A stretch of 64,000 bases of DNA from positions 5,203 to 69,202 of the IMG/VR virus record IMGVR_UViG_3300037010_002425. One strand, written 5' to 3'. Made by a program: the position numbers and the translations under genes. This stretch comes from a virus. The notes under the pieces are model-generated. The model worked only from the letters and a program-made list of their open reading frames with translations. It had not been told where the DNA came from and made no database searches. This document shows, one piece after another, positions 9,400 to 63,204 of the stretch; the first letter of the stretch is position 1; each line of letters begins with the position of its first letter.

Positions 9400-9919
9400 C
9401 GCAAGCGCTCGCTTTCCCGTTGGGAGTTTCGTACACCTCGATGCCCGTCACGAAGACGCTTTTGCTAACCGCGGCGAGGCTGCGGCGCGCCTGCTCAAGC
9501 ACGTAGAGCGCCAGGCACTCGGCCGTGGGCGGGTCCTGCATGATCACGAGCTTCGTTCTCTCGTCGGCAGCCAGTGCGGGAATGAGCGGGTCGCCCACCT
9601 GCAGGATAGTCGCGTGGTCAAGAGTCTCGTTAAGCCACTTTCCGACGGTGCTCTTGATGTCGTCGAAGTCGATGATCATCCCGTCGTTATTGGCGAGTTC
9701 TTGATGCCAGCCGCTAGCCAGTGGCTCGATAAGCTTGTGGCCGGTACCGACAGATTCGTGGCCAATTTCGACGGTTAGAAGAAAGTCGTAGCGGTGGCCG
9801 TGCAGCCCCGAGCACTTCCCCTTGTGGGCGAGCAGGCGGTGCGCGGAGTCGATGGACATTCGAATCGTCGCCGACGGACGAAGACGACGAAGGCCAGAAG
9901 TAATGTGTGTAACGCTCAT
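9389..9919 (-). CDS. queD: 6-carboxy-5,6,7,8-tetrahydropterin synthase
   Basis: SAHRL...GKCSGLHGHRY, MIIDF, LDH, PTAE, ETP. Confidence 0.93.
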   Translation of the reverse strand: MSVTHITSGLRRLRPSATIRMSIDSAHRLLAHKGKCSGLHGHRYDFLLTVEIGHESVGTGHKLIEPLASGWHQELANNDGMIIDFDDIKSTVGKWLNETLDHATILQVGDPLIPALAADERTKLVIMQDPPTAECLALYVLEQARRSLAAVSKSVFVTGIEVYETPNGKASACDGF

Positions 9920-12730: not shown

Positions 12731-13223
12731 TCTCGTCTCCCTGTCTCCGGGACATCTCCCGTGACAGAGCGCTAGCACGCCGTTCGAAAGACTTCAGCCT
12801 CGCCCGTAGGAGCTTGGATTTAGCTTCTTTTTCGAGGCGGTCGAGGTCCGCGCTGACGAACTCGGGGTCCATCCGCGTCTTCATATCCTTGTCTTTGACG
12901 GTGCCGGCTTTCTTGTGGCGAATGTTCGCCTCTAGCTGGGTTACCCAAACTTCCGCCTCTGCAGCATCGATGTCGAGAAGCGCGCATTCCCGCTCCAGGT
13001 ATTCGAGGTAGGCCACGTGGTGCAGGTAGAGGCGGCCGAGGTCGTCACTAGTGAGGTCCGCCGCGTCAATGACGGAGGAGGGCACGGCGCATTGCTCCAC
13101 CTCGCCGAATCCCTGTGCATCCCAGTAATCGTTAGCAGCGCCGCGCATACGGCCCCGCTGCCATTCCGGCTTCGGGCCGAACTTCTCCGCAGCCCGCGCG
13201 GCTAATAGCCCTTTGAGCTTCAC
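12708..13223 (-). CDS. Helical protein, possible UvsY-like recombination mediator
   Basis: GTG start with GGAGG; coiled-coil character, ends ALSREMSRR; lies in the recombination cluster. Confidence 0.5.
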   Translation of the reverse strand: MKLKGLLAARAAEKFGPKPEWQRGRMRGAANDYWDAQGFGEVEQCAVPSSVIDAADLTSDDLGRLYLHHVAYLEYLERECALLDIDAAEAEVWVTQLEANIRHKKAGTVKDKDMKTRMDPEFVSADLDRLEKEAKSKLLRARLKSFERRASALSREMSRRQGDENARRDPS

Positions 13224-14095
13224 AGGCACACCTCCTGCGAAGCGCGTGTTTCTGGCGTCCGCCGGTCGAATGCATCCCAGCGTGCGAGTCCCCGGCGTTC
13301 GGCGGTGCAGATCTCCGCGTAGAGGCACTCGCGGTCGCAGTCGGCCTCGACGTAGACGGGGAGTTTCTTGCGTTTCGTGGATTCGAGCAGCCCGATGCAG
13401 AACTCTTCAATCTCGCCGACAGTCTTTTCGTCGTAGCGAACGTAGAACGAGGCGGCAGGGCCGGCCCAAGCCTGGGAATCCTTGTTTTCGTAGAGGACGT
13501 AGCCGGCGCCGACGCGGGCCATCATCATGTACGTGAGCACCTGCATCCGGTGCCGCTGTTCGGGCTCTTTGAGCGACTTGCAGCCTTTAGAGCCTTTGGT
13601 TTTGAAGTCGATAAGGTACCGGTCGCCGCTGTCCATCGTCACGATGGCATCTGCGTTTCCCGCGATGGGAAGGAAGCTGTGTTGCAGGCGCTTCTCTAGT
13701 TCGACCTTTCCAATCCCGAAGTGGTTATCCCGCGCCATGCGAGTAAAGAGCTTTCCGAGGCCGACGTGCCTGTTGTCTCCGTTATCGAAGATCTTCAGCA
13801 TCGTAACGTTCGTCTTTGGCACTCGCGGCGAGCACAGAAGGTCGAACACGATTGCCCGCTTGCAGCCCGCCGTGTTCGGGTGAAGGCCCGACGAGGGATG
13901 GAAGTAGCCTTGCGGGCGACCGAGGCGGTCTTTGTTGTAGTGCTCCCAGATGTAGCTATTCGCGAGCATCTCGAAGTCGATCGTCGGAACGTCGGGGTCG
14001 ATAGCGGCGTAACTCTCGTCTTTTGCAGAGGCTTTCTTCGCGCGCGGCGGCGCTTTTTGCGAGAAAACGCTCAGTAGCAGTTTCTTCATTGTCAT
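13220..14095 (-). CDS. Cas4-like PD-(D/E)XK exonuclease
   Basis: FHPSS..C, GNADAI...LIDFKT, QVLTYM, YENKD, C-terminal Cys cluster (CDRECLYAEIC). Confidence 0.8.
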   Translation of the reverse strand: MTMKKLLLSVFSQKAPPRAKKASAKDESYAAIDPDVPTIDFEMLANSYIWEHYNKDRLGRPQGYFHPSSGLHPNTAGCKRAIVFDLLCSPRVPKTNVTMLKIFDNGDNRHVGLGKLFTRMARDNHFGIGKVELEKRLQHSFLPIAGNADAIVTMDSGDRYLIDFKTKGSKGCKSLKEPEQRHRMQVLTYMMMARVGAGYVLYENKDSQAWAGPAASFYVRYDEKTVGEIEEFCIGLLESTKRKKLPVYVEADCDRECLYAEICTAERRGLARWDAFDRRTPETRASQEVCL

Positions 14096-26485: not shown

Positions 26486-26793
26486 TGATGTTCCTTGCAG
26501 CGGACGTTGCAGTTAGAGCGCAGCACCTCGCGGCTATTCGCGTGGAGGATGCAGCTAACAGAGATGAGGCCGCGCAGGTCGGCCTCTCCCATGAAGGTTT
26601 CGCACGTAGTCCCGAGAGGCTCGACCGGGTAGCCCTCCTCGCAGTGGAGTTCGCGCAAGTGTCGGCAGGTGGTTTCTGCCGTTCGAGGAGTCATGCCCGG
26701 TTCTTCCGCCGGGGCACTCGGCGTGCAGGCCGTCGCCACGATGGCGAGCGCACAGATGAGGGCGAGGCGTTCGAAGGCTTGTTGGTGGTTCAT
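26482..26793 (-). CDS. Putative lipoprotein with Cys-rich domain
   Basis: Hydrophobic leader ending ATA-C; six further Cys. Confidence 0.6.
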   Translation of the reverse strand: MNHQQAFERLALICALAIVATACTPSAPAEEPGMTPRTAETTCRHLRELHCEEGYPVEPLGTTCETFMGEADLRGLISVSCILHANSREVLRSNCNVRCKEHQ

Positions 26794-27599
26794 CGTTCTT
26801 CCAGCTTTCCAAACGCGCTAAGAGCGTAGAACTCCGCTCCGACCTTTTCGGCCCGCTCTTGAGAGATGAAGTAGAAGCCCTTGTCGCCCCAGCCGGTTCC
26901 CCAGCTGTTAATGCCGCGGTAACAAGGGATACCCCGCGTGTGCTCGACGCCGACAAGGCAGGTGTAGTGCCACCCGAGGACGGTGCCGAGTTCCTTCTGC
27001 CCGATGAAGGATTCGCCGCCAATGTAGTCCTCGAAGTCTCCGTCCACCGGCTGGGCGAACACGACAGGGAGTCCTTTCCACAGGGCGTAGGTGACGTCCT
27101 CGGGCTTGAGCGGGATCGCGTTGGACATGGTAGCCCGCCGATTAGAGAACCCTTTCTGCAGTAGGTCCAGGGGGAGCCGCGCGTTAACGACGTTCGGGTC
27201 GAAGGGGTATTCCTCCTCGTCCACGAAGCCGAACTCTTGAATGAAGCGGAACGCCAGCGCCGGCTGACATCCGCCGTCTTCGAGAGCAGGAAACGAGCGG
27301 TGCTCTTTCGAGCGGCCACCCGCGTAGATAGCGAGCGCGGAAGGGCGAAGTTCGCCCCGCGACATGACGCGCACGGCCTGGGCGATAGCTTGACCGACGC
27401 ACGAGCTAGTGGCCCCCTGGTCGACGATTTCCGGCTCGTAGCCCGCCGGCAACGCGTAGCTGTGCCCGGCAGGGTTGGGGTGGTCGGGGAAGCCAGGGAA
27501 ACTCAGGAACGTAGAATACTTCCCGTCGGCTTTCCGCTCAGTGGGCTGGTGCAGGTACGTGTCCCCGCTACGACGAAAGCCGTAGGTTCTAGTAATCAT
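26790..27599 (-). CDS. Papain-like (C1) cysteine peptidase
   Basis: DQGATSSCVGQA (oxyanion Q, catalytic C), GWHYTCLVG (H), INSWGTGWGDKGF (N); start MITRTYG is ATGA-coupled. Confidence 0.88.
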   Translation of the reverse strand: MITRTYGFRRSGDTYLHQPTERKADGKYSTFLSFPGFPDHPNPAGHSYALPAGYEPEIVDQGATSSCVGQAIAQAVRVMSRGELRPSALAIYAGGRSKEHRSFPALEDGGCQPALAFRFIQEFGFVDEEEYPFDPNVVNARLPLDLLQKGFSNRRATMSNAIPLKPEDVTYALWKGLPVVFAQPVDGDFEDYIGGESFIGQKELGTVLGWHYTCLVGVEHTRGIPCYRGINSWGTGWGDKGFYFISQERAEKVGAEFYALSAFGKLEER

Positions 27600-27922
27600 C
27601 GGTCGGCACCTGCGTCTTTCGGCGTGGCGTGTTCGAGTGCGTATTTCCGCGACGCCGCCCGCGACGTGTTGACGATTTCGCGGAGGTCCGGAAGCAGGGC
27701 GTCCGTGATGTTGCACACTCGGGCGATGGTCGCATCGTCGCTCTCCGCGTTGGCGATAATGCAGATGACGTTCGCCGCATCGAGCGCGGTGTTCGCTGCT
27801 CGCCGATTAGCGGCGGGTGAACAGGCCGCGGAGTACACGGACAAAGCCACGAGGCCGGCCGTCGAGATCAGGATGAACAGGAGGGCTTGCGCTACCGGCT
27901 TTTTCTTCGTTGCAGTGTGCAT
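27596..27922 (-). CDS. Putative lipoprotein
   Basis: KKK, hydrophobic helix, then SAA-C lipobox-like site. Confidence 0.6.
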   Translation of the reverse strand: MHTATKKKPVAQALLFILISTAGLVALSVYSAACSPAANRRAANTALDAANVICIIANAESDDATIARVCNITDALLPDLREIVNTSRAASRKYALEHATPKDAGADR

Positions 27923-41700: not shown

Positions 41701-42063
41701 GACGCGGTTTCCCTCAGGAAAGGTCACGGCGCGCAGCTCGCTGATCTGCGGCTGGTCGACGCGAAACAAGAAAGCTTCCCGCGCCGTTTCTCCACTCGCC
41801 GTTCCCGTCGCATGGAGGGCGATCGAAGGGGTGTCGGCGGAGAGGGCAGAAACGCGGTAGGTCCGGGAGTCTGCGGTAAAGGCGGTAAGCACCGCCAAAA
41901 AGCCTACGGCGGCTACGAGGGAGCCGCCGAGGACGAGAGGTTGTCCGTTTGCCATAACGTTGATGCTTCCTGTAACCAGCCCCATCCCCTGGAAGGTGAG
42001 TAAAAACTCAGCGTCTCGGGAAACAGGAGCAATCGGGTTTTGGGGGGTGACGGTGATCTTCAT
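38704..42063 (-). CDS. Baseplate wedge (gp7/tail-I-like) fused to an SGNH/sialate O-acetylesterase-like domain
   Basis: Follows baseplate J; YQLLPKAVRRAD and KGT...TGW wedge motifs; C-terminal GQSLS, THGESD, DNLHL. Confidence 0.72.
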   Translation of the reverse strand: MKITVTPQNPIAPVSRDAEFLLTFQGMGLVTGSINVMANGQPLVLGGSLVAAVGFLAVLTAFTADSRTYRVSALSADTPSIALHATGTASGETAREAFLFRVDQPQISELRAVTFPEGNRVDLTWRNGSGTTRVRILRSQKGHPRLPYDPDAEAIYAGVAVTNFTDTVAPGAYYYTVFLSSAASAPMQPEQWLFSADGMVTGLSIEDYEAAEGNYVYQLLPKAVRRADQSTLAGDDRGLAESKTRNLLAVTNLFRGWLSALGDLRDPDLMPAGQIGIPSNQDGLLRAAAKEQGIPVDMNAETSSLRRLVTGISTVQATKGTCPSLVALAKLSTGWDVRCEQENYPHCGSSRVMKTWDGKSTWYRINPTSNAPGVSAVHTAETPTGDIVELPTYQPENMFALDAWGGFACVGSVSAGGESDQEISFSDPSAFMRKELLITGSSPSDGVFDIDAVITNDAWQLPSETPRSWMAGALYSTGAVSFLDSAGNRFFITGQYETGEFAAGKTRITLAPSAPVANGQASIADAHTPGAWATRSAETGFRLHVGDFSLMPSGLWDARLRSEAFDSYWSFMPGGGSDFADVYAPRPSDVLLWVSGNYEALGTVTATKGGAYPSLYNELTDSTAAWIPGALTGHYVIPNWNTRRLYRITGNSETALYLEPNDRDLNIEAVARAGSTYVILSQRDAYSYARLVAALPSFAPKGANVYVRFEPVKDYLLESPDNVLGIIETGQSLSVGATAYPPITTMPVPGHLRLAGMQALLPTLITPTTTWTAVDIAEPPREFTQNLPHPNNVEGETGATYFASLAEGAYRGRMKTAHSLVGKDGWAMYLIAKNGVTEPNDSIEPGRSFSAAIDEVTAFKRILNSQGKSYEVAAVILTHGESDYADTAYNLSVRQMQQDYDHDVRAITGQATRIPLILSQASAGMYASLPVSLAVHESQRQAGILWPNDIFVSGPKYQYEFSPDNLHLTAQGYRDLARKNWQVFNEVRRGRGWVPLQPISAEASGSRVTLTMAVPHGPLVFDSALWDGNHSVVNTEWTNGKGFELYNGATKLTIASVSIAGNIVYIDTAAPLPAATDISVAYAFLGDGDGKVRRGQLRDSDPWQPNWCLHFANVTATTP

Positions 42064-51997: not shown

Positions 51998-52504
51998 TCA
52001 GACGGGCTTAAAGCCCTCGATGACGAGGATCATCTGCTGCATCGAGTTGTTATTCGAGTTGAAGTCCAGCTCGCTAAAGGGCCGGTGGCCCTTCGGCCAG
52101 CACTGGTAGACTTCCCAGCGCTTCGCCTCGGAGCCGTCGTTATTGAGCTGCACGATCGTGACGTCTCGGCGGAACGTCGCGGAGCCCGACGGGCCCTTCT
52201 TGGAGATGTTGAACACCTGGTTGCTCCAGGCGAGGATGTCCTCGTCTCCCGCGCCGGCGGCGAGAATCTGCCCGCGTTCGAGGGTGATGTCCGGGTAGGT
52301 CGTCTTTCCAGGCGCCTTCTGCACGGTGGTGTTGGTGCCGCCCTCGCCGTATTCGATAACCGTAGTATCCGAGGAGAGAGGCGAGCACTTGGCGAAGCCG
52401 AAGCGCGCGAAACCGTCAATCTCCACGAGGAAGTTGAAGGTCTTCAGCGGGTCTTCCGCCATCGTGCGGTTGTTGTGCGTGGTGAGAATGTTCCGAAGGT
52501 TCAT
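51998..52504 (-). CDS. Tail tube protein (T4 gp19-like)
   Basis: DP...FNFLVEIDG, IEY.EGG, K.PG...Y.DITLERG, RRD.TI, W....CWP; AGGAG ribosome binding site. Confidence 0.93.
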   Translation of the reverse strand: MNLRNILTTHNNRTMAEDPLKTFNFLVEIDGFARFGFAKCSPLSSDTTVIEYGEGGTNTTVQKAPGKTTYPDITLERGQILAAGAGDEDILAWSNQVFNISKKGPSGSATFRRDVTIVQLNNDGSEAKRWEVYQCWPKGHRPFSELDFNSNNNSMQQMILVIEGFKPV

Positions 52505-52516
52505 CGTTGGCTCCTA

Positions 52517-54922
52517 TCAGGCCGCCTTCGCGACGGCGGGCGCCACGGAGACGTTGATGTTTTCAGTGGTGTTCGGGACGCTGACGTTAGAGTCGACCTG
52601 CATGATGTTGGCCGAGACAACTTCGTTGCCGTTGTTGTTTTCGTCAACCTGCGTCTGGAAAGCTTCCTCTTCCGACGCGCCAGTGAGGTCCCCGCGCTTC
52701 CACATCGCACGGTAAAACGAATCCACGGAGCGCTTCACGCGAGCGCGGCCCGAGGCGTCGTTAACGAGGAAGAGCGCGAAGCGGAGACCGATGCGGAGGC
52801 TCTCCCGGATGTAGATGTACGTCTGACGCACGTGCATCTGGCCCCAGGTACCCGGCTCACCCGTCCGGCTCCCGCAGATGACGAAGCCGCCGTCTTCGAG
52901 CTTGTCGACGGGGTTAATGTAGGCGTCGTAGAGGTCGTCGCGGTCGTCGTCCTCGATGTCCGGAAGGTACTCGCTGAGCCCGTCGACGGTGGAGAAGCGC
53001 CCGTAGATGTCCCCCGCAGGCGCCTGCTTGAGGCCAGCGTCGGCGAGGGTCTTCACGAAGCGCCCCATCGCCCACCCGTCAATCGGGAAGGTGTTCTGCA
53101 GCCCTGTGGTGACGTCCGTTGCGATCACGTGCTGATGGAACCACCGCGTGAACGACGACGCCCCGACGATTTCCGCCTTGAACGTACGGGTCTGCGCCGG
53201 CGTGTAACCAGGCGGCGAGCTGAGAACGGCCTCGACGGTGGTCCGATCCTCGCAGTAGTTGCGAAGGGCCTTTTTGATAGAGCCCGCCGTGGTGAATCCG
53301 TACACGCCCGGAATGGCCGCGAGCCGCACGTCACGAACCGTGTTCATCGAGTAGATGCCGGTCTTTGCTTCCTTCGTCCCGACGTAATCGGCGTCGACGA
53401 ACACCGTCGCTTCGGTGCCGCCAGTGAGGCTGTCGCCGACGGAGGTATTCGCGACAACGGGGCGAAGGTCTCCGCCGTTAAAGGCGGCACCGATGTCCGA
53501 GAACGCCACAAGCACGTCATCCGCGCCAGTGTTCGTCTGATTAATGACGTAGTTCTTCCCGGCGAGAGCGGACATGCGGAGACCCGACATCGAGGGCCGC
53601 GCCGGCACGCCATCGTCGAAGATGGTGAGCGAAAACGTCTCGACGTAGATTTTCGTCGTCGCGGCAGCAAGAGCTGGCGTGGTGACAGGAGCCGTAAAAA
53701 CGACCTTCGTCCCGCCGCGAATCTCGCTAACGACGCCACGGGCGAGCGAGGCGCCATCCTGCAGACGGAGCGTATCGCCCACCGCGATGCGGGAGATGAT
53801 GCTCGCGCTGAGCCCGTCGAGAGAGGTAATGGTTCCCGCCGAGATAGGCGCCGGAATCGACGAAGCGATAACCGTGTCCTGCGCGGTAGCGAGCACGGAG
53901 TAGCGGTTGCTATCGACGCCAGGCCCGGAAGCCGTCGCCGTGAGCACCGGCACAACGGACGCGCCGTTGGCGGTGTGAACGGCCGTGTCAAAGCCGCTAA
54001 TCTTCGCGACGCCGAGGCCGCTGGTGAGTTGCACCGAGCCCGTTCCCGTCGTAGACGAGGCCCAGGTAACGGCGTGGTTGGCGGTGTCCGGCGTGGTAAC
54101 GCTGCCCGCGAAGGTTGCGTTAAAAAGCCCGGCAAGCTCCGTCTCGGTCACCGCGAGGGAATCGACGACGTTCGAGGCGCCGCCGCTGGTGAAAGCCCCC
54201 GCGGCAAGGCCGAGGGAAGTGAGCACGGTCGCCGAAGTCGCGGCAGCGACGCTACCCGAGGCGCCCGAGCCAGCCTTGTCGGTGCGAATCTTGAGTTGAC
54301 CGGCCGCATCGACAGCCGCGCCGCCCACGATGACAGCGTTGATTGCTGCAAGGTACTTCGCCTGCGTGTTCTCCGTTCCGTCGAACGTGATGACCTGCGC
54401 GACGCCTCCGATAACGAGATCGAGGTGAGACGCAGCAGCCACGGCAGCGTAGGTTGCGCCTGCGCCAGTAACGCTCGCCTGCTTCGCGTTAATGGTGACG
54501 GTGAGGTTAGCCCCCCCGTTTACCTTTCCGACGAAGGTATCCCCGTCTTTCAGCGCAGCAGGGAAGGCGTTCGGGGCGCTCGCGAGTTGCCCGATGGCCG
54601 AGGCCGACTGCGCGTTGAGGACGAGCGAAGCAGCCGTGTTGGAGCCGCCCGACGAGCCGACAATCCGGCAGAAGTAGAGAACGCGGCCACCCTCGGCGAA
54701 GAACGCCTGGACGCTGTTGCCGACGACGGGGTTGGCGGGGTCGGCAGCGCCGAAGATGCGCTTCCACTGCCCGAAGTTTTTGACCTGGATTGCGCGGTTG
54801 GCGGGTCCGCGAAGCGTTCGGCCAGCCATCCACGAGATCCCAAGGGGGGTTCCCGCGATGCGCTGAGTGACGTTCGCCTTCTCGGTTACCTTGACGCGCG
54901 GGCTTCGATTTCCTGTAGCCAT
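52517..54922 (-). CDS. Contractile tail sheath
   Basis: SPRVKVTE, RGP, FFAEGG..Y..R, LAAIPG, APAG, INP, GSRT, W....VR. Confidence 0.93.
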   Translation of the reverse strand: MATGNRSPRVKVTEKANVTQRIAGTPLGISWMAGRTLRGPANRAIQVKNFGQWKRIFGAADPANPVVGNSVQAFFAEGGRVLYFCRIVGSSGGSNTAASLVLNAQSASAIGQLASAPNAFPAALKDGDTFVGKVNGGANLTVTINAKQASVTGAGATYAAVAAASHLDLVIGGVAQVITFDGTENTQAKYLAAINAVIVGGAAVDAAGQLKIRTDKAGSGASGSVAAATSATVLTSLGLAAGAFTSGGASNVVDSLAVTETELAGLFNATFAGSVTTPDTANHAVTWASSTTGTGSVQLTSGLGVAKISGFDTAVHTANGASVVPVLTATASGPGVDSNRYSVLATAQDTVIASSIPAPISAGTITSLDGLSASIISRIAVGDTLRLQDGASLARGVVSEIRGGTKVVFTAPVTTPALAAATTKIYVETFSLTIFDDGVPARPSMSGLRMSALAGKNYVINQTNTGADDVLVAFSDIGAAFNGGDLRPVVANTSVGDSLTGGTEATVFVDADYVGTKEAKTGIYSMNTVRDVRLAAIPGVYGFTTAGSIKKALRNYCEDRTTVEAVLSSPPGYTPAQTRTFKAEIVGASSFTRWFHQHVIATDVTTGLQNTFPIDGWAMGRFVKTLADAGLKQAPAGDIYGRFSTVDGLSEYLPDIEDDDRDDLYDAYINPVDKLEDGGFVICGSRTGEPGTWGQMHVRQTYIYIRESLRIGLRFALFLVNDASGRARVKRSVDSFYRAMWKRGDLTGASEEEAFQTQVDENNNGNEVVSANIMQVDSNVSVPNTTENINVSVAPAVAKAA

Positions 54923-54933
54923 ACGATTCCTCC

Positions 54934-55659
54934 TTAAAGGATTAGAAGAGACTGTGCGGGAAGCTCATAGCTCCATTCCGCGGTTTCGTCGCTGTAAGCT
55001 TCGACGTTGTAGGTGATTGCTAGGGCAAACTCGCGATCAACATACCCGGTAAGGGCCGCCTCTCGCGAGTCGAGGTCTTGTGTGTCGGTGTGAAGCATAT
55101 CCCACGTACGAATTGTGCCGTCCGCCATCCGCACGCGAATGAAGCTCCGCGGGGGAAACGCGCGATACACGTAGTTTTGCAGGAAAGAGCGAAACCCGAC
55201 GTCCTTCGCATAGGCGCGGATTTCGACGGAAACGTCGTAGGGGCGTTCCATCGTCCGGCGGCGTAGAAGCGCCGGAACAAGCAACGTGTCCCCGTCGTCG
55301 AAAACAATCTCCCGGCGAGGGCCCACCTCCTCGACGTAGTGCTCCGAGGTCACGGTGCTGGAAACCGGGACAGCTTCCGTGTAGCGCGGTTTCGCCGGCC
55401 CGAGGTTGAAGGTAATCGACGGGTAGGCGCGGTCCGTTAGGTTGCCGTCGATTCCGAACGGATGAATGGACACCTGGACGCGGGCGGCAGCTTGGCCCGG
55501 CTGTCGGATGTTGGCCTCGAAAGTGCTCTTCTTAATGGGAGCAACGCGACCCTGCTGACCACTTTCGAAGTCGTTAATCCGCGGCAACGGCGGGACGTAG
55601 TCAGGCCCGCGCCCTTCAAGTCGAGCCCGCACCGATTCAGAGAGAGCCAGCGATAGCAT
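54934..55659 (-). CDS. Putative tail terminator/completion protein
   Basis: Directly upstream of the sheath; YPSIT and PYD motifs. Confidence 0.55.
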   Translation of the reverse strand: MLSLALSESVRARLEGRGPDYVPPLPRINDFESGQQGRVAPIKKSTFEANIRQPGQAAARVQVSIHPFGIDGNLTDRAYPSITFNLGPAKPRYTEAVPVSSTVTSEHYVEEVGPRREIVFDDGDTLLVPALLRRRTMERPYDVSVEIRAYAKDVGFRSFLQNYVYRAFPPRSFIRVRMADGTIRTWDMLHTDTQDLDSREAALTGYVDREFALAITYNVEAYSDETAEWSYELPAQSLLIL

Positions 55660-56083
55660 CTTCAATCTCCTTGCCTACGGCCCCAGCTTCGCGCTCCAAA
55701 AACAGGGCCGTAGGCCGCTGGTGGGGCCGGGCCGGGATGTCACCAGCTCCGTATTCGAGAAGGTCGCCGAGGGCTTCGTTAGTGAGGCCGTCGCCGTGGG
55801 ACCCGGTAGGGCCGATGCCGAGTGTCCGCCCGTCCACGGTAGACCGCCAGCTCTTGAGGTAGCGGCCAGTTCTAACGAGAGTCGGCTTTCCGTCTGGCCG
55901 GCGCTTAGGCACCAGCGAGAAGCTTCCGTCGGCAATCGAGCGTTTCAGGAATTCGATAGCCCGCTTCCCGAGCCGCTCTAGTGCCCGCTTTTCCGCCTTG
56001 GCGTAAGAAAGGCGAGCCCGCCGGATGCCGGCGAGCCCTTCTGCGAAACCGGTAAAATGCATTTTAATCAAGTGAACCTCCAC
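55637..56083 (-). CDS. Neck / virion morphogenesis protein
   Basis: KPTLVRTGRY, LLEYG...IPARPH.RP. Confidence 0.75.
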   Translation of the reverse strand: MEVHLIKMHFTGFAEGLAGIRRARLSYAKAEKRALERLGKRAIEFLKRSIADGSFSLVPKRRPDGKPTLVRTGRYLKSWRSTVDGRTLGIGPTGSHGDGLTNEALGDLLEYGAGDIPARPHQRPTALFLEREAGAVGKEIEDAIAGSL

Positions 56084-57489
56084 GCATCGGCGAACACGTC
56101 CGCGAGCCCGGAAGGCGACAATAGCGCAATGTCGGCCGTTCGCCCGCGAAGGTCTGGATTAGCGAAAACCGGGGTTGTGAGCGTGAGCAGGCTGCTGGTC
56201 AGAGAGACGACGGGCATCTCTTTCCCGTAGAGCGTCGCTCGGGTGCCGGGCACGAAGTACCCGGAAATCGCCACAGTGTCTCCGCCCTCGATTCCGCCCA
56301 CACGCAGCGACAACGAGGAAAAGTCGATGTCGCGATTATTGCCGAGCCGAAGAAACCTCGAACGAAACGGCAGCGTGTGGATTCTGACAACGTTCGAGGG
56401 CACAACCTCGCGGTTAGAGTCCATGAGGTACAGGCGGTAGAAGTAGTCGGTGTCCGGCTCGACGGGCTTTCCGCTCCCGTCGTAGAGAATGCCATCGGTG
56501 AACGCGCAGTAGGCAACGCGGCGGTCGTACATCGCGCCGAAAACCTGAAGGCTGGTCCCCGGCTGGTTCGGCATCGCGCCAGGCAGGTAGCCCGCGGCGA
56601 GCATCCCAGTCGAGTTGCGCTCTACCCGGGGCTGCGTGTCTCGCCAAAGCTCGTAACGCGCGAAGCCCTCGTCTCGGAATTCCGAGCTGCGAAGGCGCAC
56701 CAGCGTGTCCTCGACGTCCCCCTGATTCGGCTCCAGCAAGGTCGGCGGGGTCGGCGGAGTGTTTCGACGCATCGGCGCCACGAGCCCGAACCGCAGGCTT
56801 CGCCGCGTGAGAGAGCCAACGATGATGTCGCCTGTCCCGATATTCTGCTCGTCCGCTTTCGCTACCGGGACGAAACGCGCGTTGCTTTTCCGCTCCGCCT
56901 CGTAGCGGGCATCCTGGTCCTGGGCGAGCTTCAGCAGGGTGTCGGCGTCGTCCCCCATACCCTTTCGCCGGCCGGCATCGGCCGCCAGGGCACGGAAACA
57001 GGCCGCCTGGGCCTTCATGAGCACGTAGGGGTGTTCGTGAGGGGGAACCGTCGAAACGCTCGCGTAGTTCGGATTGTGTAGCGCAATGGCCTGTTCGAGG
57101 ATGACTTCGAGTTCGCCGTCGCTCCAGACACGGTGCTTGAGGGTAATGGCATCCTTCGCGTCGCTAGATCCGTCTAGCTGCAGGTCCACCGCAGGGTGCT
57201 CATTGCGGATGTTCGGGTCGGGAATGAGGGCCCAGCCACGCAGTTTAGCGATGGCGTTGATGACGCGCCCCACAGTCGAGTACCGAGGCTCCTGCAGATT
57301 AAAGCGGAACGCTTCCACGGTTCCCTGCCCGCGGACGACGGATGCCGACAGGCTGCCGTTGCTAATCTCCAGAAAAGCCGATTGGCACTCTCCCGTCGCT
57401 GTAAGCGAGAATGCTGCGACGTTCGCCCGGTCGTCTGCCAAGGCAGCTCGCAACCGAGCCAATAGAGTCTTTTTCGCGCTTCCAGCCAT
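56068..57489 (-). CDS. Head-tail adaptor-like protein with FN3 and IPT/TIG-like C-terminal domains
   Basis: WSDGEL...L..A connector-like core; EPDTDYFYRLY; GGIEGGDTVAISG. Confidence 0.55.
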   Translation of the reverse strand: MAGSAKKTLLARLRAALADDRANVAAFSLTATGECQSAFLEISNGSLSASVVRGQGTVEAFRFNLQEPRYSTVGRVINAIAKLRGWALIPDPNIRNEHPAVDLQLDGSSDAKDAITLKHRVWSDGELEVILEQAIALHNPNYASVSTVPPHEHPYVLMKAQAACFRALAADAGRRKGMGDDADTLLKLAQDQDARYEAERKSNARFVPVAKADEQNIGTGDIIVGSLTRRSLRFGLVAPMRRNTPPTPPTLLEPNQGDVEDTLVRLRSSEFRDEGFARYELWRDTQPRVERNSTGMLAAGYLPGAMPNQPGTSLQVFGAMYDRRVAYCAFTDGILYDGSGKPVEPDTDYFYRLYLMDSNREVVPSNVVRIHTLPFRSRFLRLGNNRDIDFSSLSLRVGGIEGGDTVAISGYFVPGTRATLYGKEMPVVSLTSSLLTLTTPVFANPDLRGRTADIALLSPSGLADVFADAWRFT

Positions 57490-57515
57490 GGTCTTGTCTC
57501 CTAACTCTTACAGAC

Positions 57516-57549
57516 AGAAGGGCCCCCGTTTGCGTCGGGGGCCCTTTCT
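57516..57549. terminator. Strong hairpin after the capsid operon, probable terminator
   Basis: AAGGGCCCCCG-TTTGCGT-CGGGGGCCCTT. Confidence 0.65.
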
Positions 57550-57551
57550 AT

Positions 57552-57833
57552 TCAGCCTACGATGCTGATCCAGCCGTTCTGCGCCAGCGTTTCCGCGTGA
57601 CTCGGGTCCATCAGAATCTCCGCGCCCTTTCGAGCCTTGTAGATTCGGTAGCCCATCGAGGCGTCGAGGTCCTTCAGGAGGAAAACGGTCACCTCCTGAG
57701 TGGCCTCCTTCTGTGCCGGGGGAGCAGCGGGGACTTCCTTTTCGGCGGCCTCCGCTTCGGCGATTGCGGCTTCGGTGGCGATCTCTTCGGGGGTCTTCGC
57801 CGCTGCGGGAGCGGCAGTTTTGGTAGCAGCCAT
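57552..57833 (-). CDS. Small head-associated protein
   Basis: GGAGG ribosome binding site; ends HAETLAQNGWI. Confidence 0.6.
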   Translation of the reverse strand: MAATKTAAPAAAKTPEEIATEAAIAEAEAAEKEVPAAPPAQKEATQEVTVFLLKDLDASMGYRIYKARKGAEILMDPSHAETLAQNGWISIVG

Positions 57834-57850
57834 GTTCCAGTCCTCCAGTG

Positions 57851-58237
57851 TCAGGCCGCGCCGGCAGCGGTGAGGTAGGGGGCCGCGTTATTGACCGGAG
57901 CCGCCGCAGAGAGCGCGACGAAGAGGATGGCGACGACGTCACCAATGGCGTAGCCGCCGGCGCCGACGGTGACGCGGGCATAGCCCTTCGCGGTGACTTC
58001 GACGCTCGTGATGGCAATCGGCTTGATCGTGCGGACGCCGGCCGAGGCCGGGCCGACAACCTGCGCGACAAAGGGCACGAGGTTGGGATTGGCGTCGAGC
58101 TTGACGCCGGTGTCGAGCTTGATGTCGAGGGTATCGGTGGCCGCGAGGGCTGCCGTCACCACGTGCTCGACGAGAATCATGTTGCCTTCGGTGACGCCGG
58201 GATGCGTGTGCCGACCAGTAGTGTTGAACGCTGCCAT
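57851..58237 (-). CDS. Putative capsid decoration protein
   Basis: Small beta-rich ORF directly after the major capsid gene; AGGAG ribosome binding site. Confidence 0.6.
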   Translation of the reverse strand: MAAFNTTGRHTHPGVTEGNMILVEHVVTAALAATDTLDIKLDTGVKLDANPNLVPFVAQVVGPASAGVRTIKPIAITSVEVTAKGYARVTVGAGGYAIGDVVAILFVALSAAAPVNNAAPYLTAAGAA

Positions 58238-58301
58238 GTTCGTAGCTCCTCAGAAGAGTGTTGCGATTAGAGAGAACCGAGCACGCGGTGGGACGCGTTA
58301 T

Positions 58302-59333
58302 TCAGGCAGTTTCAAGGGCGAGGATGTGCTTCGTCTCAAGAAGGCCCGAGCCCCAGATCGAGTACCAGGCGAGGGCGTGCTCACGGCCGAAGTCCTGCAC
58401 GCCGTTGTCGCGCATCTCGACGGGAAGGCCGACGGCGTGGCCGTAGCTGTACTCGCCGAAGAACAGCGCGACGTAGATCGGAATCGAGTTCGTGCCGCCA
58501 AAGGTGGCCGTCGCGAGGTTGATGTCGAACGCCGGGTCGACGTAGTCACCCGTATCCGAATCGAGAGCGCCGTTAGCGCCGTTCTTCGCCATCGACGTCG
58601 AGATGAAGCGAACGTCGTTCCAGCGACCGACTTCGCCGGTAAAGATCGGGGTCGAGCCAACGTAGTATTGCGCGTTGGTCCAGCCGGCCGACTTTCGCAT
58701 CTGCGTGAGCTGGTGGGGGTGGCAGACGCAGAGATAGAAGTCGCCATCCCACTTCGGGGCGTTCGACGTTTCGAGCGCTTCGGTGGCAGCGTAGATTTCC
58801 GTCGTGGTGAGGCCGTCACCCGCGACGAGGGCCGCGCGGTTAGCACGCCCGTTGGCGTACTGGCGTTGCGTGGTCGCCGAAGCGACGTCGCGGAGCTGTT
58901 GATCGAGGACGACGGCCATATCGCGGCCGAGAAGCATCGAGGCGGCCGCAAGCTGGTCGAAGAACGACTGCTGAATGAGGCGCTCCGAGACGGCGACGGC
59001 GTTGCCGTACTCGTCCACGGTGAGCGACGAGGTGCTCATGCTCATCGCCTTCGTCTCGATGCGCTTGCCCTCCTGGAGCTTCCCACCGCGCTTCAAGCCG
59101 CCCATCTTCGGCATGATGATGTTCGAGCCCGGCTGCGTTCCCAGCTCGGTCTTGCGCACGGCAAACTGCTCGAAACGCAGGTTCGGGAGCGCCGAAAAGT
59201 AAATCTCGGCACTGTAGACGTCGCGAATGGCAGAAAGCAGCGGGGCAAAGCCGGCTGCCGACGCCGCCGCAGTCGTCATGACCGACGAGTGCGTGGTGAG
59301 GATGCGATTGAACGTGCTGATCTGCTTCTTCAT
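58302..59333 (-). CDS. Major capsid protein (N4-gp56-like, HK97 fold)
   Basis: P.LRFEQFA..KTELG..PG, EYGNAVAVSE, HPHQ, GEVGR...VRFI, DFGREH.LAWY.IWG. Confidence 0.92.
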   Translation of the reverse strand: MKKQISTFNRILTTHSSVMTTAAASAAGFAPLLSAIRDVYSAEIYFSALPNLRFEQFAVRKTELGTQPGSNIIMPKMGGLKRGGKLQEGKRIETKAMSMSTSSLTVDEYGNAVAVSERLIQQSFFDQLAAASMLLGRDMAVVLDQQLRDVASATTQRQYANGRANRAALVAGDGLTTTEIYAATEALETSNAPKWDGDFYLCVCHPHQLTQMRKSAGWTNAQYYVGSTPIFTGEVGRWNDVRFISTSMAKNGANGALDSDTGDYVDPAFDINLATATFGGTNSIPIYVALFFGEYSYGHAVGLPVEMRDNGVQDFGREHALAWYSIWGSGLLETKHILALETA

Positions 59334-59347
59334 TAGAGAGTCTCCTA

Positions 59348-60406
59348 TTACTGATTGTTCTGAGAGTATCGGCCGCCGCGCGCAGCGGACGCGGCGCGGA
59401 ACGCGTTAGCCGCGTCCGCCACCGAGATGAATGCGCCGGGAATGGTCGGATGCGGAATGGTGCCCGGTGCTTGCACGTTGAGAGGAACCGCCGGCGGAGC
59501 GCCGACAGGCGCCGTCTGCTGCGTTGCCCCGAGCATCTGCGTGGGAAGCTGCGTGGCGACGCCAGGGTTGGGCATCGGTGCAACAACCTGCTGCGGATTG
59601 CCCTGCTGGCGATTAACGCCGAGTTGCCGTTGCGGGCCGGGCGGCGTGTTTCGCACCTGCGGCGCCTTCGATGCCCCAAGCGAGGCGAAGATGGCTTCGC
59701 GGTGCGCGTTGTAGTCGCCGCGACGAATGGCCTCGGGATCGAGCGCCAGGCGAAGCACGTCGGTCAAGCCTGCCATGCCCGGCGCACCGTCCGTCACGGG
59801 GACGGCGGGAGCAGTAATCACGGAAGGGAGTGAGACGTTCGGAAGGGCCGCCGGCTGCATCGTCTCCACAGACGGAGCAACCGGGGCAGGTTCCGCAGCG
59901 ACAGGGGCAGCAGCAACAACAGGCACAACAGGGGCAGCGGCCACGGGCGCGGGAGGCGCCGGCTGGTAGCGCTTCCACACTTCGTGAGCGTTGTTCACCG
60001 AGGCGTTAATCTCCTCGGGGCTGTTCCCGCCGATAAGCTCCTCGACGATGCCGAGCCCGCTAGAGCGAGCCTGGTTAATGACGTTGGAGCGGTGCATAGA
60101 AAGCACCTGCTGGCGGAGGGCTTCCACCTCGGCGTTGCTAGCCGCCGGTGCGGGAGCTGCGGCAGCTGGTGCCGGGGCCGGTGCCGCCGGCGGAGCAACA
60201 ACTTCCCGCGCACCCTGCGCCGCGCCAAGGGCGAAGTTCAGGATGGCGGGAAGTGCTGCCGTCGGGACGTGGTCCGCGATATTGAGCCCCTGGGCGAGGG
60301 TTGAAACCGGTGCAGCGGGCGCGGGCTGTGCAGCCTGTGCCTGGGCGGCGGGGGTTTCCCCTTCATGCGTCCGCAGGATGTTGTGAAAGACTCGTTGCTT
60401 TTTCAT
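59348..60406 (-). CDS. Capsid scaffolding protein
   Basis: Pro/Ala-rich; ELIGGNSPEEINASV motif; upstream of the capsid gene. Confidence 0.75.
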   Translation of the reverse strand: MKKQRVFHNILRTHEGETPAAQAQAAQPAPAAPVSTLAQGLNIADHVPTAALPAILNFALGAAQGAREVVAPPAAPAPAPAAAAPAPAASNAEVEALRQQVLSMHRSNVINQARSSGLGIVEELIGGNSPEEINASVNNAHEVWKRYQPAPPAPVAAAPVVPVVAAAPVAAEPAPVAPSVETMQPAALPNVSLPSVITAPAVPVTDGAPGMAGLTDVLRLALDPEAIRRGDYNAHREAIFASLGASKAPQVRNTPPGPQRQLGVNRQQGNPQQVVAPMPNPGVATQLPTQMLGATQQTAPVGAPPAVPLNVQAPGTIPHPTIPGAFISVADAANAFRAASAARGGRYSQNNQ

Positions 60407-60436: not shown

Positions 60437-60679
60437 TCAGATCTTACCGGTGTTCCGAACGCCGTTGCCGACGGTCGGAAGCGTGCCGGTATTCGCCTGC
60501 GGGTGCTCGACGCTGTTGTTGCGGCGAATCGAGAGATTCTCGCGTTCAACGAGCACGCCCGCGTAGGTCGAACCGAGCCCAAAGCGGGTGTCGCCCTGCT
60601 GGGAAGAGCCGCCAGCCGCGCCCGACCCGTTGCCAGTCTTCGTAACTTCTTTGACCATTCCGCCGCGATTTCCTGCCAT
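60437..60679 (-). CDS. Small Gly-rich head-region protein
   Basis: AGGAG before MAGNRGG. Confidence 0.55.
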   Translation of the reverse strand: MAGNRGGMVKEVTKTGNGSGAAGGSSQQGDTRFGLGSTYAGVLVERENLSIRRNNSVEHPQANTGTLPTVGNGVRNTGKI

Positions 60680-60742
60680 GACTAATCTCCTTTTTGAGAG
60701 GTGTAACCGGCCGATAGCCTGTTTGGCCTCGGCCCACAACGT

Positions 60743-61519
60743 TTAGGCGCTCGCCCCGTCGTCACCGGGAGCATACGTGTTCCCGCGGCCGGGTCCAGGC
60801 CCGGGAGGCGGAGGTGCGCCGTTGCTGCTTCCGGGGCCGCTAGCGCCGCCAGTCATTCCGGGCGTCTGTCCAACACCTACGGGAGCTTCCGCCGGCTTTC
60901 CGGCGAGCAAGTTCAGGAATGGAATATCGTCGAGAATGCGCTCATCCTCACGCTTCGCGTTAATGTTCTCTTGGAGCTTTTCGCGAATCCAATCGCGAGA
61001 AGACCAGCCCTGCTTTTGGTAAAGCGAGTAGAGGTTCGCTTCCGCCTGTTTGTCCCGCGGGAGGGCGGAGATCGTCCCGACCGAGCTTTCGTAGGGGTCG
61101 GCGTAGACAGGATTATCGCAGCCCGTAGGCACGAGCACCATCATCCCGAGGTGCTCCTCTTTCCACGTCCCGCTAGCCTCGTCGAACTTCAGCTGAACGA
61201 CGTCTAGCTCTTCGGGCTCCTCGGGCACGTCCATGTCGTGCTGCGCGAGCTGCGGAAAGGCGAGCGGTGCGCTCTCAGGGTCGTTAGGGCCGACAACGGC
61301 CTTTAGAGTCGTCGTCGGGCTGTCGGTAGAGGGCTCTTCCCCGCGACCGTAGGCCGTCAGGGCGTCAAGCACGCGGGAGCGCGTAGCGGCGTCTTTCAGC
61401 TGTTCTTTCGCGGCCGAAGCTAGGCCCTCCTGCACGTCTGCGCTGAAGTCTCCCGCCTCGTAGCGTTCCTTCGCTACTTCGAGAATCCCGGTGGCTAGTT
61501 GCTCTTCTGTGAGTGCCAT
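60743..61519 (-). CDS. Portal protein C-terminal fragment
   Basis: ALPRDKQAEAN...GWSSRDWIREKL...EDERILDD matches SPP1-type portal C-termini; TAATG-coupled. Confidence 0.65.
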   Translation of the reverse strand: MALTEEQLATGILEVAKERYEAGDFSADVQEGLASAAKEQLKDAATRSRVLDALTAYGRGEEPSTDSPTTTLKAVVGPNDPESAPLAFPQLAQHDMDVPEEPEELDVVQLKFDEASGTWKEEHLGMMVLVPTGCDNPVYADPYESSVGTISALPRDKQAEANLYSLYQKQGWSSRDWIREKLQENINAKREDERILDDIPFLNLLAGKPAEAPVGVGQTPGMTGGASGPGSSNGAPPPPGPGPGRGNTYAPGDDGASA

Positions 61520-63204
61520 TATTCGGCTCCCTTCTTAGCCGGTTTCGGGAGCACCTTGCCAGCTGGTTTGCCCTCGGGCTTCGGTTCGGGCTTCCCCGCC
61601 TGCTTTACCGCGGCTTGCCGGTCGGCATCGCGGTCTTTCTCCTCGCCAGCTTTTTGCTGCGCTTCTACGTTCTTTTCCTCGGCGTGCTCTTTCTTGGTAT
61701 CCGCCTCTTCCTGCTTGTCGACCTGCGGTGCCGGGTCCCAGTAAGACGGCGACTTCTTTCCCCAGAAGCGCTTTGCCTGGCCCCAGGTCATCTCGCGGGT
61801 TTCCTTGCCGAAAGAGTGCTCTACGACGACCTTAACGGGCACGTCGTCCGGCGAGAGAAGATCGAGAGTAGTGGGATTGACGCGGTAGCAGCGCTTTTTC
61901 AGCTCGGTGCTGCCGTCCACCTTCTTCACCCGGTACGAGATAACGCGCCCGCCGCATTCCGAGCACATGTCGACAGGGAAGCGCTTTCCCGTCATGAGTT
62001 CGTGGATGCGGAGGATGAAGTAGTTAACCTTCTGCAGCCCGACGACGTAGTTAACGGCTTTTCGGGCAGTGGCTTCTACGAGCGGCTGAAACTGCACCTC
62101 AAGTGCCGCCGCCGAAGTGTTGCTAATGGCCTGCAGCCGGCCAAGGCTGCCTTCCGGGAGGCCCGACACGTCGAAGAGAACTTGGCGCACGAGTTCGAGG
62201 TACTTGTGCGCCGCGCCCTGGTCGCCGCCCATCTCCAGGTTGAAGATTTTGGCGTTCTCCGGAAGCCCCGACCAAAGGTTCTTCGGGTTCTTCTGCAGGT
62301 TGCGCGCCTTCGCGCCCTGAATAATGGTGATTGGTGCGGCGTGGTAATGCACGACGTCGCTGACGTCGGTCATCTTTTCGTTGAACTCGCGTTGTAGGTC
62401 GATCACGCCGTCGAGGTCTGAAAGCCCGTAGTATTCGCCGGGCACGGCCTCGTTAGCGATATGCACGAGCGGCACCTCGCCGAGCTGGTTTGGTCGGCGT
62501 GAAGCCGCAGCGCCTTCCCAGCCTTCGACAATTTCCTCAGGGCTAATGTACTCGACGTAGCGGCGCTTCCGGATGGTCGACGTCGTCGAATCGGCGCGCG
62601 GCACGACGGCCTGCCCTGCGTTGTCCTGCTGCTGTTGAAGCGGCGAGAACACGGGCACCTCGGTCACAATCTTGACGCCGAGAATGCGCTCAGAGTTCAG
62701 CGGGTCCCATGCCGGAAAGCATTGCTCGCTAGAGAGGAGCCGAATGCGGCAGCGCCCAACAGCGAAAGGGTTCAACCGCCGCTCCAGTTTGGTCGGGGGC
62801 TCGTACGTGGGAACGATGAAAACGTCCCCAGTGATACCGCCCATAATCGCAATCTGGAGCAGCAGTTGCTTCTCTCCATTTTGCTTCCACACCTTCTGCA
62901 GCACGGGCAGCGTCGCGAGCTTGAAAGGCTCCGGAACGTCGAGCGTGATGCCTTTCCCAAGAAGCCAAGTAGCCTTCTTAGAGACGACCGCACGCGCGTA
63001 GTTCGCGACAATGAGGGGCTCGGCGTCTTCCCGCGTGATGGCCCAATGCATCCCGAGGAAGAAGTTCCAGTGCTCCTCATACCGCTTTAGACGGAGGTTC
63101 TCGATGGGGTCGAGGGCCGTCCGCTGCGGGTCTTTGTCGATTCGGCGCTGGTAGGGGACCTGCGTCCCGCTAGTGCCTTGAGTGTGTAGAAGCTGGAGTG
63201 TCAT
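61519..63204 (-). CDS. Portal protein (SPP1 gp6-like), N-terminal main part
   Basis: ANYAR, GGITGDVF, N.LGEVPLVHI.N, GLSD, ISNTS..AL.V.FQPL. Confidence 0.88.
   Translation of the reverse strand: MTLQLLHTQGTSGTQVPYQRRIDKDPQRTALDPIENLRLKRYEEHWNFFLGMHWAITREDAEPLIVANYARAVVSKKATWLLGKGITLDVPEPFKLATLPVLQKVWKQNGEKQLLLQIAIMGGITGDVFIVPTYEPPTKLERRLNPFAVGRCRIRLLSSEQCFPAWDPLNSERILGVKIVTEVPVFSPLQQQQDNAGQAVVPRADSTTSTIRKRRYVEYISPEEIVEGWEGAAASRRPNQLGEVPLVHIANEAVPGEYYGLSDLDGVIDLQREFNEKMTDVSDVVHYHAAPITIIQGAKARNLQKNPKNLWSGLPENAKIFNLEMGGDQGAAHKYLELVRQVLFDVSGLPEGSLGRLQAISNTSAAALEVQFQPLVEATARKAVNYVVGLQKVNYFILRIHELMTGKRFPVDMCSECGGRVISYRVKKVDGSTELKKRCYRVNPTTLDLLSPDDVPVKVVVEHSFGKETREMTWGQAKRFWGKKSPSYWDPAPQVDKQEEADTKKEHAEEKNVEAQQKAGEEKDRDADRQAAVKQAGKPEPKPEGKPAGKVLPKPAKKGAE

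Follow-up and report, generated by a model that had tools for sequence, protein, structure and literature searches.

Short N-terminal leaders shared by scaffold, capsid and tail tube of a BCD7-related myophage point to processing by a Prp-type protease

A leader shared by three virion proteins

This analysis concerns a short N-terminal leader peptide that is shared by three virion proteins, the probable scaffolding protein, the major capsid protein and the tail tube protein, of the virus represented by IMG/VR record IMGVR_UViG_3300037010_002425. The record comprises 69,202 bases and is estimated to be about 75% complete; the window, i.e., the whole stretch of 64,000 nucleotides that was analysed, corresponds to positions 5203-69202 of the record. 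All genes in the window reside on the minus strand. The structural module is of the myophage type and consists of genes for portal, two open reading frames (ORFs) without a family match, scaffold, capsid, neck, sheath (801 residues), tube, tape measure and baseplate, and the left half of the window holds replication genes together with a 7-deazaguanine gene set. Family-level matches for an N4-gp56-family capsid, a gp19-type tube, a sheath and an SPP1-type portal in conserved order place the phage among the myophages related to Bacillus phage BCD7 (Becedseptimavirus), which is its closest isolate (capsid 45% identical).

When all six frames of the 64 kb were searched, the patterns IL[TRS]TH, [IVL]L.TH and IL.T[HN] were each matched three times, always at the same three N-termini, and every match lies within the first 15 residues of scaffold, capsid or tube (Table 1), i.e., one motif is carried by non-homologous proteins of a single phage. 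Shuffling the residues of the six frames gave a mean of 0.057 matches to IL[TRS]TH, and three matches were reached in none of 300 shuffles; for the more relaxed IL.TH the mean was 0.25 and three were reached in 1 of 300. The leader start codons are equipped with ribosome-binding sites: AGGAG precedes those of tube and capsid, and AAGGA is located 8 nt upstream of that of the scaffold. No Shine-Dalgarno sequence precedes the downstream ATGs (codon 15 in the tube, codon 19 in the capsid gene), and the scaffold gene has no other start codon within 30 codons. The 18-nt cores of the leaders are identical at 15 positions between tube and capsid, at 12 between tube and scaffold and at 11 between capsid and scaffold, yet the scaffold copy retains I-L-x-T-H. 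Judged by this codon usage, the leader is selected at the peptide level. A sequence-only reading of the same DNA had proposed the shared leader, the AGGAG sites at the capsid and tube starts, a signal acting at the peptide level and the extension of the leader to a tail protein, and had considered that translation might instead begin at the downstream methionines. Our results agree with the former on every count and speak against the latter.

The assignment of the scaffold deserves a comment. The encoded protein has no match in Pfam, PHROG or NCBIfam. Its gene is situated directly upstream of the capsid gene, and the product is 32% identical over 189 residues to its syntenic counterpart in the related IMG/VR record G008 (G008:26127-27236), which resembles BCD7 gp101; in phage LuckySocke the gene in the equivalent position is annotated as encoding a scaffolding protein. 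The ORF is therefore referred to as the probable scaffold.

Table 1. Leaders, leader-bearing proteins and other features discussed in the text. Coordinates refer to the window unless another record is named.
Feature	Position	Strand	Evidence
Tail-tube leader, residues 1-10, MNLRNILTTH, predicted cut after His10	52475..52504	(-)	boundary with leaderless orthologues
Predicted mature gp19-type tail tube, NNRTMAEDPLK...	51998..52474	(-)	PF06841 E 1.4e-31, phrog_4542, TIGR02241
Whole tube ORF, MNLRNILTTH then NNRTMAEDP	51998-52504	(-)	
Shine-Dalgarno AGGAG, 6 nt upstream of tube leader ATG	52511..52515	(-)	
Major capsid leader, residues 1-15, MKKQISTFNRILTTH, predicted cut after His15	59289..59333	(-)	
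Predicted mature major capsid (N4-gp56 / HK97-fold)	58302..59288	(-)	phrog_1357 E 2.9e-44, PF13252, TIGR04387 E 2.6e-35
Whole capsid ORF, MKKQISTFNRILTTH then SSVMTT	58302-59333	(-)	
Shine-Dalgarno AGGAG, 8 nt upstream of capsid leader ATG	59342..59346	(-)	
Scaffold leader, residues 1-14, MKKQRVFHNILRTH, predicted cut after His14	60365..60406	(-)	
Probable scaffolding protein (Ala/Pro-rich) without leader	59348..60364	(-)	position and synteny
Whole probable scaffold ORF, MKKQRVFHNILRTH then EGET	59348-60406	(-)	
Small leader protein of relatives, 66-110 residues, Gly/Arg/Lys-rich	L186:13082-13324 (G008); equivalents in L193, L194, L195, L196, L192, L318		
Possible fourth leader, MTMKKLLLSVF then SQK, Cas4-like exonuclease (gene 13220-14095)	14063..14095	(-)	weak
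Papain-family C1 peptidase	26790..27716	(-)	PF00112 E 3.4e-10; weak phrog_16701 'peptidase'
Portal protein	61519-63204	(-)	PF05133, phrog_64; synteny with G008
Two ORFs after portal	60743-61519 and 60437-60739	(-)	no Pfam or PHROG match

The leader ends where leaderless orthologues begin

The capsid was compared with the best 120 of 1459 homologues, which are 54-74% identical to it. In 113 of these 120 the RDVYS motif is found at residues 19-25 as compared with residue 37 in the studied phage, and these 113 leaderless capsids begin with M[PS]SV[ML]T, which is equivalent to residues 15-20 of the studied capsid. Of the remaining seven homologues, one is truncated and six are extended by 7-21 residues; in five of these six, the extension ends with FLSTH, FLDTF, FLGTF, YLGTF or FLALF right before the M/S-P/S-S-[VM] start. 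All five close homologues of the tube (48-67% identity) carry leaders, which end with ILGIH, FLATF, FLGIF, FLQTF or FLGVF and directly precede [GNS]RT..EDP, and the leader is absent in both distant homologues (2/2). Leaderless tubes in IMG/VR begin with M[APS]R[ST]..EDP, i.e., at the same boundary. The endings of the leaders therefore define a family, [F/I/Y]-L-x-[T/I/V]-[F/H], within which the studied phage uses Ile and His. Capsid and tube thus both possess a short N-terminal extension with a fixed boundary that is missing from orthologues, and since the leader ends exactly where leaderless orthologues begin, its removal after His is the natural reading.

Searches in IMG/VR for the contigs of leader-bearing capsid homologues yielded none with query P0046 and only more distant records with query P0045, and a scan of genome contigs revealed no relative above 47%. 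The sequence-only reading had suggested looking for the leader in related phages, where leaders of the form [F/I/Y]-L-x-T-[F/H] were indeed found on a small Gly-rich protein in addition to scaffold and tube. The syntenic scaffolds of G008 and of the relatives L195 and G044 carry leaders of the type ..FLGTF then D, or ..YLGTF then N. In G008, the scaffold begins with MRNLRKKFLGTF then DE, the leader of the tube ends with ..REFLATF then GRT, and the capsid is truly leaderless, as a stop codon is present one codon upstream. G044 equally has leaders on scaffold and tube and none on the capsid; L195 has one on the scaffold and none on the capsid, and its tube is not visible. Hence, the capsid leader of the studied phage is unusual within the clade. 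Because it is nearly identical to the tube copy at the nucleotide level (15/18), a recent transfer within the genome is suggested.

Additional proteins may carry such leaders. The Cas4-like exonuclease encoded in the window (Table 1) begins with a possible Prp-type leader, in this case on a non-structural protein, and its G008 homologue begins with MRLTKTLSTIF then SGG. The gene after the capsid gene in G008 (L187:8265-8672) encodes a 135-residue protein that begins with MRLIALMAVAATFHAKYLDTF then VART and may be a further leader-bearing virion protein; no leader motif was found in the homologous position of the window (57851-58237). A fortuitous match, FLLTF at residues 20-24 of the tail-fibre protein (38704-42063), was rejected and is taken as chance because it is not conserved in the G008 homologue.

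A Prp-like gene next to the TerL gene in relatives

Record G008 (75.5 kb) is collinear with the studied record over a region that starts at the portal and takes in the tail and replication genes (capsid 56% and portal 48% identical). Upstream of its portal gene lie, in this order, genes for QueC, an 80-residue Gly-rich protein, a 119-residue protein of the Prp family and TerL. The 119-residue protein matches PF04327 with 33.4 bits (cut-off 27) and also phrog_4478 ('peptidase'), contains a GH...VCAGVS pair and aligns to 2IDL across GH...VCA.VSTLA. When its AlphaFold2 model (predicted local distance difference test score, pLDDT, 79.8) was compared with the PDB using Foldseek, the 11 best rows (ranks 1-12) were all Prp structures (7KLD, 7JVS, 1S12, 2G0I/J, 2IDL, 4PEO).

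Portal-, tube- and hidden Markov model (HMM)-based searches recovered the cassette of G008 in six further relatives (L193, L194, L195, L196, L192 and G044), and a Prp-like ORF is encoded in all seven clade relatives with a visible TerL-side region. The five TerL-adjacent ORFs found by PF04327 encode proteins of about 106-128 residues, those of L192 and G044 proteins of 94 and 107 residues, respectively. G19, H20, C33 and S37 are invariant in an alignment of six of the ORFs, from which G044, found afterwards, is excluded. Profile matches, fold and the presence of His and Cys together assign the TerL-adjacent ORFs of the relatives to Peptidase_Prp. QueC is encoded directly upstream of the block comprising the small protein, the Prp-like protein and TerL in the seven relatives. 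The small Gly-rich protein is encoded directly upstream of the Prp-like gene and carries a leader in 7/7 cases, always ending with F before GG or DG (e.g., MKKFLGTF then DGGG in G008, MKFLQTF then GGGG, and MKTISEFEMF then GGKGG). It may, as a guess, be an internal head or DNA-associated protein.

The association of Prp-like genes with leaders was examined in a set of 17 IMG/VR records, made up of 15 of 28 new tube loci, picked for contig size, and two records with leaderless capsid. The Prp-like profile matched a single record, G044, whose tube is the only one in the set to carry a leader, and it matched none of the 14 records with leaderless tubes. Completeness is 90% or more in six of the records without a match. 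PF04327 was absent from 25 other, more distant records. A scan of 80 loci with a TerL profile, 79 of them distant (27-37% identity), revealed no Prp-like ORF in these 79 when a purpose-built HMM was applied. With the G008 Prp-like protein as the query, a word-based protein search and a scan of IMG/VR returned only the protein itself, and tblastn with the L196 protein against 50,697 phage isolates gave no match.

In the 69.2 kb record of the studied phage, no Prp-like gene was detected by PF04327, phrog_4478, tblastn with the G008 protein or the purpose-built HMM, and tblastn with the G008 proteins as queries gave no match for TerL, QueC or Prp in the record. The contig ends (position 64000) only 0.8 kb upstream of the portal gene, and the TerL side of the genome is located outside the record. 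We attribute the missing protease gene to this truncation, which has also removed TerL, and the failure to find it says little because TerL itself is absent. The record contains FolE, QueD, QueE-like and tgt-like genes but no QueC, and therefore the missing quarter of the genome should hold QueC as well as TerL. By synteny, a Prp-like gene is expected in the same quarter. Classical prohead proteases (HK97/S78, T4 gp21/S77, phiKZ/S80, ClpP-like) were not found between portal and capsid with Pfam and PHROG, nor were protease families anywhere in the region from 35 to 64 kb. The statement of the sequence-only reading that no prohead protease gene is visible is thus true of the window; it does not extend to the genome, given where the record ends.

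Host Prp, ribosomal protein L27 and BCD7-type relatives

BCD7 shares with the studied phage the gene order portal, small protein, scaffold, capsid ... sheath, tube, and carries leaders on the same three proteins: scaffold (..MFMTVHA), capsid (..FQNVFA) and tube (MLKKLFMNVHA). Unlike those studied here, they end with [HF] then A[DE], and the complete genome of BCD7 lacks a Prp-like gene. Therefore, BCD7 presumably depends on the Prp of its host. No paper discussing the BCD7 leaders was found in the literature searched. BCD7-like contigs with the BCD7-type leader pattern are present in a metagenome-assembled genome (MAG) of Thermosipho and in a Bacillota MAG; no leader was seen in the other 25 of the 27 genome loci with a capsid ORF, most of which belong to actinobacteria. 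Both MAGs with leader-bearing contigs encode Prp adjoining a long ribosomal protein L27 (..DIQLF then AK..), and in three MAGs that contain leaderless relatives L27 is short and Prp is absent, a comparison that is subject to binning errors. The leaders are accordingly linked to a Prp, be it phage-encoded or that of the host.

The residues around the boundary differ between the two groups. In BCD7-type relatives from Prp-bearing hosts the leaders end with [FHY] then A. Before the cut, either F or H is used, in BCD7 (H in tube and scaffold, F in the capsid) as well as in the clade of the studied phage. The position following the cut is occupied by N, S or E in the studied phage, G, D, N or S in the clade with phage-encoded Prp and A in the clade relying on host Prp. 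A pattern scan for L27 in metagenomes gave at least 118 matches, and the 80 loci examined among them, mostly from gut assemblies, all read LQ[IVM][FY] then A; none of these 80 resembles ILxTH.

Probable processing by a Prp-family protease and its alternatives

In staphylococcal phage 80alpha, the host Prp is described as cutting the leaders of capsid and scaffold between F and A; the N-terminal sequence of the scaffold is needed for assembly and cleavage is dispensable, and a shared chaperone was suggested by the authors (PMC5744158). For the studied phage we consider it likely that scaffold, capsid and tube are each translated from the leader ATG, that the N-terminal peptides of 10-15 residues ending with ILTTH or ILRTH are propeptides, and that a small cysteine protease of the Prp family (MEROPS C108, PF04327) removes them after His. 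The mature N-termini SSVMTT.., NNRT..EDP.. and EGET.., equivalent to those of leaderless orthologues, would thereby be exposed. Most likely the protease is phage-encoded in this lineage, and in the studied phage it would belong to a cassette for QueC, small Gly-rich leader protein, Prp-like protein and TerL upstream of the portal gene. Uncleaved leaders would probably delay or chaperone the self-assembly of the three proteins, a role proposed because of the analogy to 80alpha.

Among the alternatives, the one closest to the preferred explanation is that the studied phage encodes no protease and the ribosomal Prp of the host cuts its leaders as in 80alpha. The lack of a Prp-like gene in the record and the example of BCD7 fit this view, and high-GC (guanine plus cytosine) bacteria with a long L27 do exist in metagenomes (e.g., L071, GC 0.69, and L102, GC 0.64). 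It is opposed by the Prp-like proteins of all seven relatives with a visible TerL-side region, by residues after the cut that are those of the phage-Prp clade and not the Ala of the host-Prp clade and of L27, and by the lack of anything like ILxTH among the 80 L27 genes examined; we regard it as unlikely. Slightly less probable still is a retained leader, i.e., a tag, lasting or temporary, that would bring in one chaperone or assembly partner for all three proteins or regulate them. The 80alpha findings on scaffold N-terminus and chaperone can be read in its favour, and cleavage in the clade is itself a prediction. On the other hand, presence and absence of the leader among close orthologues switch exactly at a fixed boundary, the leader co-occurs with a protease gene that adjoins the gene of a leader-bearing substrate, and a function as a tag is compatible with later removal.

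The sequence-only reading had pointed to the C1 peptidase encoded in the window as the candidate protease. Its domain is certainly present (Table 1); however, it has no homologue in G008, PF00112 was found in none of five records or genomes (BCD7, G006, G007, G008 and the G001 MAG), leader-bearing BCD7 included, and its gene sits among early or replication genes and not among late genes. That this enzyme, or another unrecognised protease, processes the leaders is therefore very improbable, and the proposal was rejected. We give even less credence to a nucleotide-level signal, i.e., a translational enhancer or RNA-binding site at the 5' end of late mRNAs with the proteins starting downstream. 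The similarity of the tube and capsid cores would suit such a signal, but the scaffold copy departs from them at the nucleotide level while keeping I-L-x-T-H, Shine-Dalgarno sequences stand at the leader ATGs and not at the downstream methionines, the scaffold lacks a downstream start, and relatives retain the peptide pattern with other residues and in other genes.

Several observations weigh against processing by a phage-encoded Prp. The Prp-like gene of the studied phage is predicted from synteny, and cleavage is predicted for every member of the clade. Pfam's own cut-off is passed by only two of the seven Prp-like ORFs (G008 and G038, the latter with 29.1 bits); three are sub-threshold (E 3.6e-7 to 9.2e-4), the L192 ORF was found only by the purpose-built HMM and the G044 ORF only by the A4 profile. 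In G006/L192, scaffold, tube and capsid are all leaderless despite the presence of a Prp-like gene and of the small leader protein, and therefore the presence of Prp does not predict which proteins bear leaders. The capsid is leaderless in all three cassette-bearing relatives with a leader-bearing scaffold (G008, L195 and G044). With [NR]IL[TR]TH then N/S/E, the leaders fail the published Prp consensus as well as the LQ[FLH]F'A of 80alpha: P1 is His, P5 is Ile, and Ala does not follow the cut. In common with the consensus they have only Leu at P4 and, at P1, a residue of the aromatic type. Neither Thr at P2 nor His at P1 occurs in any of the 80 L27 loci examined among at least 118 matches. In 80alpha, moreover, leader cleavage itself was reported as dispensable (PMC5744158).

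Relation to known leader systems

The sequence-only reading had assumed a different, undescribed processing system. This was not supported, as seven leader-bearing relatives encode a PF04327-family protease beside TerL, and the leaders probably represent a variant of the known Prp/L27 leader system and not a new one. We know of no phage other than staphylococcal phage 80alpha, acted upon by the host enzyme, for which Prp trimming of phage proteins has been shown. The studied phage resembles 80alpha (capsid gp47, scaffold gp46) in having short N-terminal leaders on non-homologous virion proteins, in lacking a classical prohead protease, in a predicted cut after an aromatic-type residue and in the probable involvement of a Prp-family protease, which would be phage-encoded here and in 80alpha is the host enzyme that also trims the L27 extension. 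It differs in the motif, [F/I/Y]-L-x-T-[F/H] then N, S, E, G or D versus (D/N)LQ(F/L)F'A, in the phage-borne location of the Prp-like gene beside TerL in its clade, and in the range of substrates, which extends to a myophage tail tube and to a small Gly-rich protein. The published motif is MLxx(D/N)LQ(F/L)F'A(S/H)KK (PMC9405229).

A leader on a tail protein is real in the studied phage; as a kind it is not new, as Kizziah et al. 2017 (PMC5744158) already remarked that the major tail protein of phi13 has a Prp motif. There too, a tail-tube-type protein has the same leader as head proteins; phi13, however, is a siphophage with a canonical motif and host Prp, whereas here a gp19-type contractile-tail tube is concerned and a tube leader is the rule in the clade (5/5 close homologues). 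The Prp-like ORFs of the relatives match bacterial Prp (YsxB, PF04327; 7KLD, 4PEO, 1S12, 2IDL) in fold, length and the His/Cys pair. They are only 15-20% identical to the solved structures, reach 24 bits versus NCBIfam equivalog cut-offs of 133-201, and their genes belong to a phage packaging module instead of lying between rplU and rpmA. T4 gp21 is a prohead protease, and the internal proteins of T4 carry targeting peptides. As in T4, and in phage Cp-1 with its capsid-trimming protease of clan CR (PMC9405229), a phage-encoded protease would trim short N-terminal peptides of several virion proteins, small basic internal ones included. The protease of T4 belongs to a different family and, to our knowledge, has substrates in the head only.

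The principle of Prp leaders, including a leader on a tail protein, is already published (PMC5744158), and PHROGs labels the Prp-like family 'peptidase' (phrog_4478). In the literature searched, we found no phage-encoded, strongly diverged Prp homologue with cognate leaders beside TerL and an adjacent leader-bearing small protein, nothing on the divergent motif or on a modular tag spread over scaffold, tube and sometimes capsid, and no processed myophage tail tubes. Tentatively, and with doubts outweighing confidence, we suggest that this lineage has a self-contained, portable maturation system in which a diverged phage Prp encoded beside TerL acts on a movable [F/I/Y]-L-x-T-[F/H] tag, one protease timing both head and tail assembly. 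The tag would always be present on the small Gly-rich basic protein, usually on scaffold and tube, sometimes on the capsid or the protein encoded after the capsid gene, and perhaps on the Cas4-like nuclease. If this is true, the lineage, having a Prp of its own, would no longer depend on hosts in which L27 is processed by Prp, a dependence that BCD7-type cousins would still have.

A clade with its own Prp homologue, an adjacent substrate gene and leaders on head and tail proteins would offer a genetically simple test system. It could reveal the role of the leader (gating of self-assembly, recruitment of a chaperone, or timing) and the evolution of Prp specificity, given that F or H precedes the cut and Ala does not follow it. 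For annotation, capsid and tube proteins of this large family from metagenomes should keep their N-termini and not be shortened to the downstream Met, and the small TerL-adjacent ORFs should be named Prp-like peptidases. Leaders of the type ..[FHY] then A without phage Prp versus ..T[FH] then [GDNS] with phage Prp may also be informative about the host.

Other features of the record

The 7-deazaguanine DNA-modification genes are located at window positions 2333-3307 and 8027-9919 (minus strand) and encode tgt/DpdA-like (phrog_887), FolE (PF01227), radical-SAM QueE-like and QueD/PTPS (PF01242) proteins. An RyR-domain protein (PF02026; 25814-26485, minus strand) is encoded among the early or replication genes and has no G008 homologue. 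The window contains no tRNA genes. The 258-residue ORF downstream of the portal gene (60743-61519) is fused to the C-terminus of the portal in relative L001 (L001:5307-7322). Prophage-like relatives in Streptomyces and Kitasatospora genomes (L030, L032, L034 and L036) have capsid and portal genes that are seemingly split into two to three ORFs; they may be decayed prophages or carriers of inserted elements. In the remaining 5.2 kb of the record, outside the window, the only match was a ClpX zinc finger: a stand-alone protein of 106 residues encoded at L066:4446-4766 (minus strand) in G000 carries the ClpX C4 zinc finger (PF06689, E 4.8e-10) and could modulate host ClpXP.

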